In this document: positions 2,261 through 32,422 of the stretch, piece by piece
Layout of the letters: each line of letters begins with the position of its first letter
Position numbering within the stretch: the first letter of the stretch is position 1
Source: a virus
Lineage: Duplodnaviria > Caudoviricetes
Strand: one strand, 5' to 3'
DNA: 64,000 nt
Virus record (IMG/VR): IMGVR_UViG_3300044709_000179
Location: 32,001 to 96,000 of that record
Notes under the pieces: generated by a model
What the model was told of the DNA's origin: nothing
What the model saw: the letters and a program-made list of their open reading frames with translations, nothing else
Databases searched by the model: none
Translations under genes and position numbers: made by a program

Positions 2261-3340
2261 GTGACTGACGTCCACAAGCCCAACTTCGACCCGAGCCTTT
2301 GGGCCGCCTACGAAGCTGGCGCCGGTCAGGAGCCTCCGGGCGGCAACGGTAACGGCAAGGTCGTGAGCATTGCTGACGCAGCGGCGTCGCGGGCCGCCCG
2401 GATCAGGCGCCTCACGTATCGACGGTCCGAACTCGACAACATCCCGCCGCCGAGCTATCTCATCGACGGCGTCCTCAACGACAACGTCCTTGCCCTACTC
2501 GCGGGCAAGTTCGGCACCTACAAGTCGTTCGTGTCCGTGTCGTGGGCGTGCTCGGTCGCCACCGGAAAGCCGTGGTTCGGCCACGACATCGTCAAGCCCG
2601 GCCCAATCGTCTACATCGCCGCCGAGGGCGCATCCGGCCTGAAGCAGCGCACGGAGGCATGGGAGAGCGTCTACAACCGCGGCCAGCGCATCCCCGACGA
2701 TCGGTTCATTGTCGTCGGAGGCTCGGTCCGGTTGACCCTCGGCGGCGACATGGACGCGATCAGCGAACTGTGCGCCGAGGTGAAGCCGGTCTTGCTCATC
2801 TGGGACACCCTGCACCGCTGCGCGCCCGGCGTGGAGGAGAACTCCAACACCGAGATGGGCATGGTCGTCGCGGCGATGGACCGCCTGCGCGAAGCCCATG
2901 CGTGCACGCAGCTCGTCAACCACCACACCGGTCACGCCGGAAAACGTTCGCGCGGCGCGTCGGCGATCGAGGACGACTTCGAGAACTCGTGGGTGATCAA
3001 GCTCCGCGATCCCGAGGACCGGTCGCCCAAGAATCCGCGCACCATGGAGCACCGCAAGTGCAAGGACGACGTACTGCAGGAGCCGATTCCGATCCGGCTG
3101 GCGCTCTGCGACATCTCCGCCACCGTCGAGCGCGATGAGGATCGGGACGAGGACAGCAAGTGGCTCATCGAGGACAAGGCGAAGCGGAAGGCGGCCGAGT
3201 GTGACGCTGCCGGAATTCCGACGGGACTCGGCCGTGATCGGCTGAAACTGGCCGCCCAGCAAGCCGGGATCGCGGGGGTCTCGGACACGCTGTGGGCGCT
3301 GGTCGTCAAGGCCCGAAAGGGGCTGGACCGTGCGGCATGA
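2261..3340 (+). CDS. AAA_25 / RepA-like (SF4-related) helicase
   Basis: Walker A AGKFGTYKS, VYIAAEG, Walker B LLIWDT, EENSN, HHTG...RGASA; start could be 2204. Confidence 0.85.
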   Translation: MTDVHKPNFDPSLWAAYEAGAGQEPPGGNGNGKVVSIADAAASRAARIRRLTYRRSELDNIPPPSYLIDGVLNDNVLALLAGKFGTYKSFVSVSWACSVATGKPWFGHDIVKPGPIVYIAAEGASGLKQRTEAWESVYNRGQRIPDDRFIVVGGSVRLTLGGDMDAISELCAEVKPVLLIWDTLHRCAPGVEENSNTEMGMVVAAMDRLREAHACTQLVNHHTGHAGKRSRGASAIEDDFENSWVIKLRDPEDRSPKNPRTMEHRKCKDDVLQEPIPIRLALCDISATVERDEDRDEDSKWLIEDKAKRKAAECDAAGIPTGLGRDRLKLAAQQAGIAGVSDTLWALVVKARKGLDRAA

Positions 3341-6912: not shown

Positions 6913-7287
6913 TTACTTGGCACCGGTTCGCGCCGTCAACTGAGCGCGGAGTGCGATCGTCAACTCCTCCATCGTCCGCATCTGCAGCTCCAACGTCCGC
7001 ACCTGATCGCGGAGCACGTTGGAGGCGTCGCGCTCCTTGGCGAGCTGCTCCGACACCCGGGCCATCTGGTCGTTCATTCGATCCTGCTGCGCCCGCAAGC
7101 GGTCCAACTGCTTGTCGGCGTCGGTGAGCGCCTTTTCGTAGATTGCTCGTGACCGTTCGTACGCCTCCGCGTCGACCTTCTTCTCGCTGACCTGATTCGC
7201 CTGCGAACTGGCTCGGTACGCGAAGGCTGCGGCTGCGATCGCCGGGATGCCCGCGACCGCGGCGACGATGATCTGACCAGCGTCCAT
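6913..7287 (-). CDS. Lysis-cassette membrane protein (1 TM + coiled coil)
   Basis: N-terminal hydrophobic helix, long heptad region; last gene of late operon. Confidence 0.7.
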   Translation of the reverse strand: MDAGQIIVAAVAGIPAIAAAAFAYRASSQANQVSEKKVDAEAYERSRAIYEKALTDADKQLDRLRAQQDRMNDQMARVSEQLAKERDASNVLRDQVRTLELQMRTMEELTIALRAQLTARTGAK

Positions 7288-7712
7288 CAGGACCCCCGGC
7301 GGTGCCGTGCTTCAGCCGGGGAGGGCTCCGGCCAGGTGGAGATGAGGCCGACAACGGCCGCGAACGCCAGCCAGATGACCGCGCCTACGTAGGCACGCTC
7401 CAGGTGGGCGACGATCGCCCCGGCGATGTAGGTGGCACCCCACAGCACCTTCACGCCCATGGCGGCGGCGTAGGCGGCCCGGTCGTTGCGCATGAACGCC
7501 TGAATAGCGCAGAGGATGCCGGGGACCAGCCAGATGGCCGACCAGACCGGTAGCGGCGCGAGGTGTGCGATGAAGTGCATGGTCGCGGAGCGGCGCGCAG
7601 ACTCGGGCGGGTTGAACAGGCTGTAGGCATAGACAAGATCGAGTTGGGCGAGGAAGAGCAAGAAGCAGCCCCGTCGGCCGATTCGACCGGCGAGGCTTCG
7701 AAGCGCTGACAT
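7287..7712 (-). CDS. Holin-like 4-TM membrane protein
   Basis: Four hydrophobic segments; directly after endolysin. Confidence 0.65.
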   Translation of the reverse strand: MSALRSLAGRIGRRGCFLLFLAQLDLVYAYSLFNPPESARRSATMHFIAHLAPLPVWSAIWLVPGILCAIQAFMRNDRAAYAAAMGVKVLWGATYIAGAIVAHLERAYVGAVIWLAFAAVVGLISTWPEPSPAEARHRRGS

Positions 7713-7739
7713 GTGGGCCCCCGCTCTCCGATGGTGCAG

Positions 7740-8666
7740 TTACGGCGTTCCGGAGCCCTCGCGCAGCGCCTGCTTCAGATCGGCAACCACGCCGGCGTGA
7801 TCGGCCGCGGTGAGCCCGTTGGCGCCGCTGGCGATCAGCCGGTCCGCGATCAGGTTGGCCTGCGCGGTCACCTGCTCGTCGGTGACCGTAACGACCGGGT
7901 CACGGAGCACCGTTCCGAACGCCGCCTCCGTCCAGCCGAGCCGCGACCAGCCGCCGTCGCCCCACTCCGCGCCCTCGGCGCCGTGGCCGTAGCCCATCTG
8001 CTTGGCGAGGTAGAGCACATCCGGGACCGCGAACGGCGGCACCGGCCGGGAGTGAACGAGGTCGCAAACGTAGTACTGGCCGGTGGTGGTGTCTTTGGCG
8101 ATGAACGGCATGGGGGTCTCCGGGGTTGCGGGGGTGGATTCGGTGCGGGGGTTGATCGCGGCGTCCATCAACTGCAAGATGCGGGCGAACGACGCTTGCC
8201 GGGCGTTGATGGTGTTTCGCCACCATTCGACATGCGTGTGGATGTTGACCGTATCCGTCGAGCTGATGACACCCTGACTGCGGTTCGCCGTGTCGAACCG
8301 CTTCTTGGCGGTGCCGTCGGGCGAGAAGTTGATGGCGCGCACTGCGACAAGCGCTGGGTCCGCGACCTTCAGGGCTGCGACCAGCAGGTTGTTGAACCGG
8401 ATCCAGGCCGAGCGTCCGCCGTGCGGCCAGTCGTCGCCGATGTCCATAGCTGACGCCTCATTGCCGCCGACGCTGCGGTCCCTGACCTGCCGGGTCGAGT
8501 AGTCGTTGTCGAAGTTGCCAGCGGCGCGAATCGCGGACACGCCGACGTGGTAGCCCTTGACGTGATGCTCGTCGGGCGCGATGCCAACCTCGACCGGGTT
8601 GGTGAAGCCCGTCGTACGCATGACGGCGGAGCGGAAGCTAAGCAGGTCGGCCGGCGCACTGGTCAC
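7740..8666 (-). CDS. Putative endolysin (Zn-peptidase-like)
   Basis: GTG with GGGAGG RBS; GYH...ASAMDIG...HTH ligand pattern; Pro/Thr linker; upstream of holin-like genes. Confidence 0.65.
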   Translation of the reverse strand: MTSAPADLLSFRSAVMRTTGFTNPVEVGIAPDEHHVKGYHVGVSAIRAAGNFDNDYSTRQVRDRSVGGNEASAMDIGDDWPHGGRSAWIRFNNLLVAALKVADPALVAVRAINFSPDGTAKKRFDTANRSQGVISSTDTVNIHTHVEWWRNTINARQASFARILQLMDAAINPRTESTPATPETPMPFIAKDTTTGQYYVCDLVHSRPVPPFAVPDVLYLAKQMGYGHGAEGAEWGDGGWSRLGWTEAAFGTVLRDPVVTVTDEQVTAQANLIADRLIASGANGLTAADHAGVVADLKQALREGSGTP

Positions 8667-8722
8667 AACAAGCCTCCCGGGGGGGATGGGATCCAACCGA
8701 AGCTCTCAGGAGGGGTGGCGCA

Positions 8723-9328
8723 CTACGCCACGCTTGCCCAGGTCTTGCGGCGGACTACTGACTCGACTGCGGACGGCCAGACAACCGGATACGAGCGAGC
8801 GATACTGGCCGCAGACTCACCCTGGGCGGCGCGCTCGCGGATCACACGCACGTCGGCAACCGTGAGTTTCGGCCCACCCTTCGGAAGCCATGCGGGATCC
8901 GTAGCCTTCAACTTCAGGCATTCGCGACAGGAGCGCCGCCTGCGTCCGCTCGTGTGCCAGATCGTGTTTCCGGGCGTGAACTCGTGCCCTCGGCAGCACT
9001 TGGTCCGCGCCCCCAAACGGACGGGATGCGTGTCCCCGCGCCGGGTGTTCTGAGAGCGGGTAGTGGCCTCAAGGTGCGCTGGGTTGCAGCAGATCCGAAC
9101 ACGGCACAAGTGGTCAATGACCAGACCCTGCGGGATTGGTCCCTTCCAAATCTCGTACGCCACGCGATGGGTGTACGCCTTCCTGGCGTGGCGGATGCCG
9201 ATCGTCCCATAGCCATTGGGGAGCCGGGTTCCTTGCCAAATCCAGCAACCGCTTGAGTTCATGTCAACTCGCGCGAGTAGCCGATCCTTGATCGGCGTTC
9301 GTCGCGGGAGACTAGTAGCCTTTTCCAC
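8723..9328 (-). CDS. HNH homing endonuclease with C-terminal HTH
   Basis: CWIWQG...GYG...THRVAY...IDHLCRVRICCNPAHL...N; KCCRGH...CREC. Confidence 0.92.
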   Translation of the reverse strand: MEKATSLPRRTPIKDRLLARVDMNSSGCWIWQGTRLPNGYGTIGIRHARKAYTHRVAYEIWKGPIPQGLVIDHLCRVRICCNPAHLEATTRSQNTRRGDTHPVRLGARTKCCRGHEFTPGNTIWHTSGRRRRSCRECLKLKATDPAWLPKGGPKLTVADVRVIRERAAQGESAASIARSYPVVWPSAVESVVRRKTWASVA

Positions 9329-9412
9329 TGCGGGACTCCTCTAGTCAGGCGTTCCGTCAGGCCCCGGGGCGCTCCAACGTCGCCGGGGCCGTCCATCCTC
9401 CCCATTTTCTCA
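9329..9412 (-). promoter_or_regulatory. HNH promoter + GC hairpin leader
   Basis: TGAGAAAAT -10-like box, GGCCCCGG...CCGGGGCC hairpin, GAGGAG RBS. Confidence 0.55.
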
Positions 9413-9460
9413 CGGTTCCACTCGGCTGCGTACTGCGGAACCGTTCTGCTGCAACGGGTT

Positions 9461-9586
9461 TTAGGCGACGCCACCGCCCGCGAGGTGGCGGGGGTCGGCG
9501 GCAATGCCCACGTCGTTGCCGGTGAGCCCCGTGACGGCCATGACGTCGCGGCGGAAGGCGAGGAGGTCGGGCGGGGCGTTGGACAT
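9461..9586 (-). pseudogene. Truncated original N-terminus of the endolysin (41 aa)
   Basis: MSNAPPDLLAFRRDVMAVTGLTGNDVGIAADPRHLAGGGVA with GGAGG RBS; about half identical to the first 38 aa of 7740-8666. Confidence 0.85.
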
Positions 9587-9607
9587 GGGAACCTCCGGGG
9601 GCGAGGG

Positions 9608-10306
9608 TCAGGGGCGCCGCCCGGTCAGGGCGGGCACGTCTGCGGGCGGTGCGGCCCAGCCGTAGGCCGGCCCGAGCACCCGCTCGATCTGGTGGGCCAT
9701 CGCCGCGTAGCCGATGTCACGAGGATGTATGCCGCCCGCATCGAGATCGGCGTGGGGGATCACCTGGAAGTCGACGAAGCCCGCGAACCGCGCCGGCCGC
9801 GGCGACGCCATGAAGCCGTGGGCGTAGCTGGCCCGCCAGATCGCGTCGTTGGCGTAGCCGACCCGCACCCCGAGCAGCCCGGCCGGGTAGCCGAGAAACG
9901 CCACGGCAACCTTGGCGCGGCAGATGTCGATGGCGACGTTGAGCAGCCAGTTGTAGCGCCACTCGAAGAGTCCGATGTCGCCGAGCGCGTCGTTGGTGCC
10001 GAGCGCGATCAGGACCAGATCCGGGTCTTTGTCCAGCAAGAGCGTGCCCAAGCCGGGCAGGGCGTCCGCCGTGCCCCAGCCGCCGACGGCGTAGGAGGTG
10101 ATGGTGAGTTCGGTGCCGGATGCCGCCACGTCCGCGATGAGCTTCGACCGCCAGCCTTGCCCGTCCGATGAGCCGTAGCCCTTGGCGATGGAGTCGCCAA
10201 CGACGACCAGATGTAGCCGTGCGACCGCCGCGCGGGTCGGAGTGGATCCGGCCAGCAGCAGCGTGGCGAGCAGGGCGAGGGCGAGTAAAGCGGCTTTGGC
10301 GCGCAC
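9608..10306 (-). CDS. Secreted SGNH/GDSL hydrolase
   Basis: Signal peptide; VVGDSI, GTND, DAGGIHP. Confidence 0.88.
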   Translation of the reverse strand: MRAKAALLALALLATLLLAGSTPTRAAVARLHLVVVGDSIAKGYGSSDGQGWRSKLIADVAASGTELTITSYAVGGWGTADALPGLGTLLLDKDPDLVLIALGTNDALGDIGLFEWRYNWLLNVAIDICRAKVAVAFLGYPAGLLGVRVGYANDAIWRASYAHGFMASPRPARFAGFVDFQVIPHADLDAGGIHPRDIGYAAMAHQIERVLGPAYGWAAPPADVPALTGRRP

Positions 10307-10379
10307 GGGGTCTCCTGTCGTGGGGTACGGGTACACCGACAGGCGGGGCGGAGGGGTGACGGGCGGTCCCTCGAACGGG

Positions 10380-11018
10380 TCAGGTCTGCTCGCCGTAGGC
10401 GGCCATCACGCGCACGCCGATCGTGCCGGGGCCCGCGGTGCGACGGGCCTGCACAGTCACGTCAACCGAGGCGAGGTGCGCGTAGGCGATCGGCAAGGCG
10501 GCCGGGCCGAACTGGAGGTAGCCGAACATCCCGGCCGTCACCGTCTGTGCGGCGGCCAGCGCGACCCCACCGACCAGCACCTGCACCTCGCCGGTGGTGG
10601 TGCCGTCGGACGCGCGCGCCAGGACGTTGACGGACAGGCGCGGATGCTGCGGCCTGTACCGCGCGATCGCGAGATCGACGAACGTGGCCGAGGCCGTGGT
10701 GTCGGTCGGCACTGTCGTGCTCGCAGAAGCGAACGGCACCGGGATGTAGGGACGCGCGAGCCCCGTGCCGTTGGAGTCAACGGTGGCGAGAGTGTTGCCG
10801 ACCGCGTCGTAGACCGCGACGCCGTAGACGTCCACGCCGTCCTGCACGAACTTGCCGATACGAGCCACCACATCACCAGCGGCGTTGCGCACCTCCATGG
10901 CGCCGTGCGACAGGACCGCGCCGTTGAGGGTGATGCCGCGTCGCAGCACTGCGACTTCGCGCTCCAACGCACGGAGCCGTTCGATGAAATCCTGGGGGTG
11001 GTTGGTCTGGTGGGACAT
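10380..11018 (-). CDS. Minor tail protein
   Basis: DFIERLRALEREVAVL N-terminus; position after hub protein. Confidence 0.7.
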   Translation of the reverse strand: MSHQTNHPQDFIERLRALEREVAVLRRGITLNGAVLSHGAMEVRNAAGDVVARIGKFVQDGVDVYGVAVYDAVGNTLATVDSNGTGLARPYIPVPFASASTTVPTDTTASATFVDLAIARYRPQHPRLSVNVLARASDGTTTGEVQVLVGGVALAAAQTVTAGMFGYLQFGPAALPIAYAHLASVDVTVQARRTAGPGTIGVRVMAAYGEQT

Positions 11019-30826: not shown

Positions 30827-32422
30827 TCAGATCGCTCGGCCGCGGGCTGCCGCGGTAGCCGCTTCGGCGGTCAGGCCTCGGGACTTGTAGGCCTCCACGA
30901 GGGCGGTGTTGACCGGCGTGGTCGGCGTGGCCCACGAACTGGCCGACGCCGTGTCGGTCGCCGTCGCGACCGGCTGACCGAACCCCGTGACCCGGCCCGC
31001 GCCGTCGGCCTCGGCCAGCGACGCCAGGTAGGTCTTCTCGGCGGTCGCCTCGGCCTCGACGAGGGTCTTGAACGCGGCCTCGTCGAAGGTGCCGGACTCG
31101 GTGAGCGGAACCCGCCGTTCGACGGAGGCGAGCACGCGGGCTTGCGCCGCGGGCGGAAGACCGGACTCCGCGAGAGCGACCGCGGCGATCGGGCGGGCAG
31201 CCTCGACCGCGCGGAACCGCTGCAGCTCCGTCTTCGCCTCGGCGGCCTCCCGCAGCGCCACATCGCGGGCCTGCTCGGCGGCGGCGCGCGCCCGGTCAGC
31301 CTCCTGCGCCTGAATGTTGACGGTTTCGATGGCCGGCGCGACCTCGGCCGTACCCGCCGTTCCCGGCGCCGGGCCGGTGGTGCTCCCCGACATGGGGTGC
31401 TCCTCTCGTTGTGGTGGGTTGGGTGCGGTCGGCGCCGTGCCGTCCGTCACGTCTTCTGCGGGGGTTTCGCCGCCGCCGGCGGCGTGTGCGTCCGGCTCAA
31501 CCTCGGCGGTGCTTGGCGGCTCGGGCCCGCGGAACGCCTCGGCGATGGCCGCAGCGGTCTCCGGGCACTCCCACGGCGAGCGCTGGAACAGCTGCGGCGC
31601 GTCCGCTTCGACCCGCGCCGACCACGCCTGAAGGCCGTCGCCGATCGCGGCCGACAGGGTGATCCGCTCCTCGCGGGTCAGTCGACCGTCGCCGTACATG
31701 TCGTCAGCGAACGTGGTCAGGGCGAGATGCAGCCGCGACTCCAGCCATGCGCCGACGTTGCGGGCCTCGCGCAGTTCGACCGGCTGCGGTGCGGGCTCTG
31801 AGGCCTCACGTCGCGCGGCCTCACGTGCAGACTCCAGCAGCGACACGATCCGCCCGCCCGCGCCGGCCGAGGTGACGAAATCGACGCTCTTGCCGACACT
31901 GATGGACTCCACGATCAAGCCCTTGCGGCCTTCGCGGGCGCCGTAGACCCCCTCGCCGTCAGCGTTGATGGAGACGCCGATGTTCTCCCATGCCTCCCGG
32001 ATGAACGGGGCATACGCGCTGAACACCTTCACCTTGGCCCGCATCGTCTTGCCGCCGTCCGGCGTGTACGGCGTCTCGTCGATGACCGCGGCGAGGGTCT
32101 GCAGTGACCGCTCAGGGCGTTCGACCGCCTCGCTGATCGAGGGGTGGTCGAGGTGGACGTGGGTGCCTTTGCCGAGCACGGTCGGCACGTCACGCACCAG
32201 CACGTCGGCCGGGTAGTAGCGGGTGCCGGCACGGTTCCAGCCGGCAGAGATGATCTGCATGTCGACGAGCAGCGGGCCCGCCCCGGTGGCGGGCGCTTCG
32301 CTGATGGCGCGGACGACCGACTCGCGCAGTTCAGCGCGCTCCACGGTGACAGCGGACTCCCGCAGCGGAATCACCAGCCGTGCCGCGAGGTCGCGGTTGG
32401 TGGGGCCGAGACTGTTCGGCAT
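30827..32422 (-). CDS. Prohead protease / scaffold fusion
   Basis: RYYP, HLDHP, IGVSINA, SVDFVTSAGAGGRI; Ala/Glu-rich C-terminus. Confidence 0.85.
   Translation of the reverse strand: MPNSLGPTNRDLAARLVIPLRESAVTVERAELRESVVRAISEAPATGAGPLLVDMQIISAGWNRAGTRYYPADVLVRDVPTVLGKGTHVHLDHPSISEAVERPERSLQTLAAVIDETPYTPDGGKTMRAKVKVFSAYAPFIREAWENIGVSINADGEGVYGAREGRKGLIVESISVGKSVDFVTSAGAGGRIVSLLESAREAARREASEPAPQPVELREARNVGAWLESRLHLALTTFADDMYGDGRLTREERITLSAAIGDGLQAWSARVEADAPQLFQRSPWECPETAAAIAEAFRGPEPPSTAEVEPDAHAAGGGETPAEDVTDGTAPTAPNPPQREEHPMSGSTTGPAPGTAGTAEVAPAIETVNIQAQEADRARAAAEQARDVALREAAEAKTELQRFRAVEAARPIAAVALAESGLPPAAQARVLASVERRVPLTESGTFDEAAFKTLVEAEATAEKTYLASLAEADGAGRVTGFGQPVATATDTASASSWATPTTPVNTALVEAYKSRGLTAEAATAAARGRAI

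Follow-up and report, generated by a model that had tools for sequence, protein, structure and literature searches.

Free-standing endonucleases of T4-type phages, such as those of the Seg and Mob groups, spread by what has been called intronless homing, a process accompanied by co-conversion of flanking markers, and the codons of conserved residues are typical homing targets (PMC2988022). Insertion of mobE into nrdA of phage Aeh1 and of mobA into the topoisomerase gene of T4 split the target gene into two working pieces (PMC2988022). In fungal mitochondria, endonuclease open reading frames (ORFs) found in atp6 of Allomyces macrogynus and in atp6, atp9, cox2 and nad3 of Glomus carry a foreign 3' end of the gene that they occupy (PMC3630166). 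The present work concerns a related arrangement in a phage endolysin gene, located in a stretch of 64,000 nucleotides (hereafter the window; positions 32,001 to 96,000 of IMGVR_UViG_3300044709_000179, a 118-kb IMG/VR virus record of high G+C content), where an HNH endonuclease gene lies between a short copy of the endolysin start, referred to as the stub, and a complete endolysin gene. A site-specific, free-standing HNH homing cassette has probably invaded the endolysin gene just before its Tyr-His codons.

The locus resembles the T4 systems in that an HNH or GIY-YIG gene sits outside any intron or intein, beside or inside an important gene, and occurs sporadically among relatives; break-induced gene conversion dragging markers along would explain both the foreign 5' end of the lysin gene and a gradient of divergence seen in a second instance, the metagenome contig L098. 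It differs from them in that the Seg and Mob genes are intergenic or gene-splitting, whereas here a full replacement start is present, the old start is left as a stub, and nuclease activity is putative. It agrees with the fungal ORFs in that an endonuclease gene lies within a protein-coding gene, that the displaced gene end has a divergent foreign counterpart, and that the native end stays unused beside the element; the two copies are 63.5% identical at the DNA level in Glomus atp6 (PMC3630166) and 66% identical here. The fungal elements replace the 3' end in frame and encode LAGLIDADG or GIY-YIG enzymes, whereas this locus is their mirror image, with a replaced 5' end that has its own ribosome-binding site (RBS) and start codon, an HNH enzyme, a phage host and a lysis gene as target. 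Furthermore, the native fungal fragments are near-identical to close relatives (PMC3630166), whereas no relative of the stub exceeds 66% identity. As with the homing endonucleases of introns and inteins, the insertion lies at invariant catalytic codons of a needed gene whose function is preserved; unlike those elements, it has neither a ribozyme nor an in-frame splicing domain, and function is preserved by a second start. The locus is thus best seen as homing biology of a known type in a phage version, the 5' counterpart of the fungal kind with an HNH enzyme. No description of such an arrangement in phages was found in the literature searched, which is not proof of its absence.

The interrupted endolysin gene

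The tail and lysis genes of the window all lie on the minus strand, in the order tail genes, GDSL-type hydrolase, stub, HNH gene, 308-amino-acid lysin and two small proteins. The interrupted part comprises the following features.

9461–9586, minus strand: stub ORF of 41 amino acids, with GGAGG 6 nucleotides before its ATG
9470–9586, minus strand: stub proper, codons 1–39 of the resident lysin allele, with the native leader and RBS at 9587–9607
9461–9469, minus strand: junction, two codons foreign to the family, then the TAA that closes the stub
9329–9460, minus strand: left end of the insert, 132 non-coding nucleotides with a hairpin (9360–9390) and a 12-nucleotide block (9347–9358), then the RBS of the HNH gene
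8723–9328, minus strand: HNH_3 endonuclease gene, 201 amino acids (PF13392, PHROG 826)
8667–8722, minus strand: spacer of 56 nucleotides holding the lysin's own RBS, GGGAGG at 8673–8678
8553–8666, minus strand: functional lysin 5' end, codons 1–38, repeating the stub segment in divergent form, with the Gly-Tyr-His codons at 8547–8555
7740–8666, minus strand: complete putative endolysin, 308 amino acids, GTG start at 8666

The original prediction, made from the letters of the window, had described a 41-amino-acid ORF with its own RBS upstream of the HNH gene and a downstream lysin that restarts with a new RBS and a divergent copy of the same segment, and both are present at the positions listed. 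Its count of about 19 identities in about 38 residues between the copies holds, the measured value being 20 of 41 residues (E 3e-9). At the DNA level the two starts are 66% identical over 139 nucleotides, and because this similarity begins about 22 nucleotides upstream of both start codons, the leader, including its RBS, is duplicated as well. Residues 1–39 of the stub align with the N-termini of about 90 lysin homologues, at up to 62–66% identity, and the residues Gly20, Gly28, His35 and Gly38, invariant in the family, are all kept. The predicted position of the break, just before the Gly-Tyr-His codons, is also right: after the Gly run every family member continues with Tyr-His, whereas the stub departs into two unrelated codons and then TAA. 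Judged by these alignments, the 41-amino-acid ORF is a genuine N-terminus of the lysin family and no chance ORF. Its start, 21 nucleotides past the stop codon of the GDSL hydrolase gene, is where a lysin gene natively begins; in loci L100 and L101, a GDSL gene (35% identical to that of the window) is followed after about 20 nucleotides by an intact lysin gene.

The closest relative of the stub is the N-terminus of the L100 lysin, at about 62–66% identity (62.5% over 40 amino acids, E 3e-13), and that of the functional lysin N-terminus is P0004, at 68%. By sequence comparison, the two 5' ends of the window derive from different alleles. Tandem duplication in place was considered and ruled out, as the copies are only 50% identical in amino acids and 66% in nucleotides and each has closer relatives elsewhere.

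The core of the HNH protein matches PF13392 (E 4.7e-15; 55.4 bits against a cut-off of 24.8) and PHROG 826 (E 7e-45), and alignment with the HNH protein of L098 and with P0100–P0105 shows no variation at the catalytic Asp-His, Asn and His positions. The G+C content at third codon positions is 0.73 in this gene against 0.87–0.95 in the flanking genes, a composition foreign to its surroundings. The gene is free-standing, with its own RBS and start codon and with stop codons on either side, and no Rfam intron model was matched over 7000–10500 at E values up to 1. The proposal that no intron or intein is needed accords with this empty Rfam result, with the stop codon past the junction, and with the separate RBSs of the HNH and lysin genes. 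The closest relatives of the HNH protein, P0100–P0102, are 60–65% identical to it. It contains a Cys-rich region and a C-terminal helix-turn-helix tail; the tail also occurs in P0100 and is missing from the L098 protein, P0101 and P0102, so the clade contains two DNA-binding architectures. Two further HNH_3 paralogues, 33–38% identical, are encoded by the same phage (62294–62794 of the window, minus strand, and G000:C1:105880–106065), and neither has a flanking duplication.

Recurrence at the same codon boundary and uninterrupted relatives

A second instance was obtained from a profile scan of metagenome contigs. L098, a contig of 7964 nucleotides, has the same order of parts.

2916–3032 of L098: stub, a 39-codon lysin start plus stop
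3160–3621 of L098: HNH gene, its product 58% identical to the window HNH
3700–4635 of L098: complete lysin, 311 amino acids

The L098 stub ends at the same point, between Gly-Gly and Tyr-His, with TAG straight after the last Gly codon, and the DNA past the junction is homologous to that of the window over its first 15–20 nucleotides, over a GC-rich hairpin and over the 12-nucleotide block before the HNH start. Hairpin and block, which lie at 9347–9390 (minus strand) in the window and at 3100–3143 in L098 and have a 6-bp stem in both, stand out from a spacer that has otherwise diverged, and this conservation suggests that they may act as a control element for HNH expression. A 17-nucleotide pattern taken from the conserved left end had 34 matches in IMG/VR, none of them near a lysin gene or a close HNH relative, and these were set aside as chance matches.

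The two instances differ in their surroundings and lineages. In L098 the gene that precedes the stub does not encode a GDSL hydrolase. The stubs of L098 and the window are 53% identical and their functional starts 45%, the best relatives of the L098 copies being P0080 for the stub (82%) and L097 for the functional start (76%). On these comparisons, L098 is an independent instance, drawn from other stub and lysin lineages than those of the window. All four N-termini are closer to intact lysins than to their own neighbours, which excludes local duplication and disfavours a long-dead relic, and recurrence of the layout at the same codon in a second phage makes site-specific invasion likelier than a one-off accident.

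Among 41 lysin loci, the HNH gene and the duplicate occur in two, the window and L098, and both times together. The other 39 (8 viral, 30 metagenomic and 1 genomic) contain neither a second N-terminal match nor this HNH gene; duplication without the HNH gene in relatives, which the original prediction had named as evidence against itself, is therefore found in none of these HNH-free loci. Uninterrupted counterparts are provided by L007, L097, L099 and L100. L007 comes from a relative of the L098 phage (80% nucleotide identity in a tail gene) and has its lysin gene at the position of the L098 stub, where L098 has 784 nucleotides more. Two loci of the assembly that also contains L098, namely L097 and L099, align with its functional lysin gene at 89% and 86% nucleotide identity, respectively, and the similarity begins exactly at the start codon. 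For the phage of the window itself, no close HNH-free relative came to light. A screen of short called proteins for further stubs gave no stubs, just three fragments of 103–142 amino acids.

Relatives of the window HNH gene were also followed into other targets, by scanning 160 IMG/VR loci that contain them for upstream repeats of the start of the downstream gene. Two clear cases were found and confirmed by ORF listing. In L077 (1117–4334), a 69-amino-acid stub of a DNA methyltransferase precedes the HNH gene and the full methyltransferase gene, with 82% identity over 66 amino acids; in L037 (3803–4863), the HNH ORF begins with an in-frame fusion to about 27 codons from the start of the target gene, which then follows as a whole, overlapping the HNH stop codon. 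The full methyltransferase gene of L077 also contains an apparent intein-like insert. Repeats of 27–28 amino acids, 68–81% identical, flank related HNH genes in L043/L071 and L067.

Homing and the competing explanations

If a homing cassette is responsible, it would enter the lysin gene at a fixed codon boundary, before the invariant Tyr-His of a probable zinc-binding motif. Resident codons 1–39 would stay upstream as the stub, closed almost at once by a stop codon, and the insert would bring first its conserved left end, which is non-coding, then the HNH gene, and last a new RBS with a lysin start taken from another allele. Because that start continues into a complete lysin, lysis would proceed without splicing. 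Spread would most likely occur during co-infection, the HNH enzyme cutting or nicking HNH-free lysin alleles and recombinational repair copying from the HNH-bearing genome, with homology arms formed by the stub on the left and by the functional lysin on the right. The length of foreign lysin would be set by the conversion tract and would include at least the 5' end and, in the window, possibly the whole catalytic domain. The anatomy itself, its return at one site, its tie to the HNH gene and the foreign derivation of both copies are shown by the sequences; cleavage or nicking, the site of the cut, the repair route and a co-conversion of variable extent are what we infer from them. The splicing-free homing element of the original prediction is supported by the free-standing HNH gene, the complete lysin and the recurrence in L098, but its restriction of the import to the N-terminus is not.

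Several observations weigh against homing of this kind. The lysin instances number no more than two, with HNH genes that are distant from each other (58% identical). The two functional starts 3' of the HNH genes, at 45%, are no more alike than the family background, so a 5' end borne by the cassette is not visibly co-inherited with the HNH gene. The junction codons of the functional lysin in L098 are near-identical to those of HNH-free alleles; immunity through recoding, as had been proposed, is therefore not evident there, and the real cut site may be elsewhere. Finally, neither stub matches the allele behind its downstream body, which means that extra recombination events must be assumed.

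A broader version of the homing reading is conceivable, although we regard it as doubtful: the stub would be a working left homology arm, and would make up, with the HNH gene and the new start, an intron-like unit independent of splicing that homes into diverse endolysin genes, whatever their neighbours, brings foreign lysin sequence with every transfer and so drives the mosaicism of soil-actinophage endolysins, with the same design used by related HNH genes in other targets, for example DNA methyltransferase genes.

It is rather unlikely that the mobile unit consists strictly of the HNH gene and the first 39 or so lysin codons. All else would then be resident, the present lysin would be a chimera, and the stub joined to the downstream region would restore the ancestral allele, as the original prediction expected of an alignment with HNH-free alleles; the sequences of the window and of L098 do not support this. 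One point in favor of such a chimera comes from L098, whose lysin gene diverges from that of L097 by 29% over nucleotides 1–99, 12% over nucleotides 100–300 and 3.5% beyond (Fisher p 4e-4), with L097 and L099 differing from each other by 10% and 6% over the first two segments; the amino acid identity of the L098 lysin to HNH-free L097/L099 rises over successive segments from 77% to 88% and 94%. This gradient indicates that the HNH-proximal end has a separate history, of the kind that a conversion tract would leave. A weak rank correlation with identity in the body of the protein (residues 41–172, about 85 homologues) is likewise seen for the stub (rho 0.26, p 0.014) and is lacking for the present N-terminus (rho 0.03).

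In the window, on the other hand, the lysin is related to one lineage evenly across residue 40, contrary to the notion that the N-terminus alone was imported: its identities to P0003/P0004 over residues 1–39, 41–100 and 101–172 are 67, 64 and 60% and 59, 63 and 67%. The best relative of the stub, L100, is just 50–54% identical to the lysin throughout, and no closer to the body than to the new N-terminus. In a quick tree of residues 41–172, the window lysin groups with P0003, P0004 and P0013, the relatives of its own N-terminus, though weakly (support of 83 in the Shimodaira–Hasegawa-like approximate likelihood ratio test). The body of the L098 lysin is 88–94% identical to those of L097 and L099, whereas L097, the allele nearest to that body, has an N-terminus that matches the L098 stub at only 53%. 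A sum of stub and body that gives the ancestor is thus not supported; the import may span the catalytic domain, or later recombination may have blurred the picture.

It is more improbable still that the locus is a mosaic scar, in which one illegitimate recombination exchanged the resident lysin gene, beyond codon 39, for a foreign block of HNH gene plus lysin gene and the HNH gene was carried along as a passenger with no site-specific homing. Endolysins of this family are highly mosaic, with N-terminal types scattered across the body tree and a C-terminal domain common with amidase_2 lysins, and the catalytic domain of the window looks single-lineage, all of which would suit such an event. Nevertheless, two instances with unlike stubs, lysins and upstream genes have one junction codon and a homologous insert end in common; chance breakpoints would not be expected to coincide, nor to strike the most conserved codons of the gene, and related HNH genes recur in the same layout in unrelated genes.

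A single ancient insertion followed by vertical descent of stub, HNH gene and lysin with no later mobility would account for the homology of the junction and of the left end in the two instances, but it is very unlikely, given that the stubs are 53% identical to each other against 66% and 82% to intact lysins elsewhere, that they keep the invariant residues and an open frame unexpected in a long-dead fragment, that the flanking genes differ, and that L007, from a relative of the L098 phage, is free of the HNH gene. Although phage homing endonucleases are frequently found within or next to introns (PMC10448857), there is hardly any chance that the lysin gene is spliced, contains an intein or is bypassed during translation, with the stub as its exon 1, and all three were rejected on the Rfam result and on the stops and start signals: the stub meets a stop codon past the junction, a full N-terminus with start and RBS is already present in the downstream gene, and a bypass would have to span about 900 nucleotides.

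The endolysin family, its neighbors and the meaning of the locus

The 308-amino-acid protein matches nothing in Pfam or PHROG, and about 100 homologues of it were collected from soil metagenomes. Residues 1–172 form the catalytic domain, and a variable linker joins it to a helical domain at the C-terminus; within the catalytic domain, His35, His40, Asp55, Asp63, Asp75 and His143-Thr-His145 are invariant among 26 members, and the predicted structure is confident across the whole domain. The best structural match of the model is the C-terminal LD-endopeptidase domain of VldE (Z 7.9, 102 of 107 residues aligned, root-mean-square deviation 3.0), which stands 1.8 Z units above the next row yet below the level counted safe, and is suggestive of a zinc peptidase fold of the LAS type. 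By analogy with LAS enzymes, His40, Asp75 and His143-Thr-His145 are putative metal ligands, which would place Tyr-His40 in the zinc site. The C-terminal part is common to the PF01510 (amidase_2) proteins P0035 and P0086. These amidase_2 relatives, the position after the tail genes and the pair of membrane proteins downstream support its identity as an endolysin, and the protein is here regarded as a putative endolysin that founds a family so far without annotation.

In the cultured-phage database, the window region had no DNA match and its lysin no protein match; with the L098 lysin as query, the sole match was in Micromonospora phage pMLP1, at 32%. A family match among genomes lies in a Dactylosporangium prophage, and a search of 401 genomes of the Dactylosporangium class with the lysin profile (5 genomes with matches) gave no adjacent stub-plus-lysin pair. 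Single-protein scans of IMG/VR with the GDSL protein and with the lysin returned no matches, and sequence searches of solved structures with the lysin and the HNH protein returned nothing useful.

The genes on either side of the interrupted part are the following.

9608–10336, minus strand: GDSL-type hydrolase (PF13472, E 5e-16), stop codon 21 nucleotides before the stub ATG
6913–7712, minus strand: two membrane or coiled-coil proteins of 141 (7287–7712) and 124 (6913–7287) amino acids, the latter matching PHROG 2466

A GDSL-type hydrolase directly before the lysin position is thus a feature of the window, of L100 (476–1099) and of L101, and the enzyme, for example an esterase, may accompany this lysin family as an additional lysis enzyme. 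The PHROG 2466 match of the 124-amino-acid protein is to an Rz-like spanin (E 7.5e-6), and the same pair of small proteins lies 3' of lysin homologues in L011/L117 and L105; the two proteins are likely the rest of the lysis cassette.

The locus represents a third way for a homing endonuclease to inhabit a needed phage gene without destroying it, besides splicing and splitting, namely by bringing a fresh start. That the layout turns up at one codon in two independent instances, and in similar form in other genes, hints at a habit common to this HNH group, one that would account for short orphan ORFs 5' of HNH genes in phage annotations and for some of the mosaicism of endolysins. The finding also defines a previously unannotated family of endolysins and singles out its Gly-Tyr-His motif as central to function.

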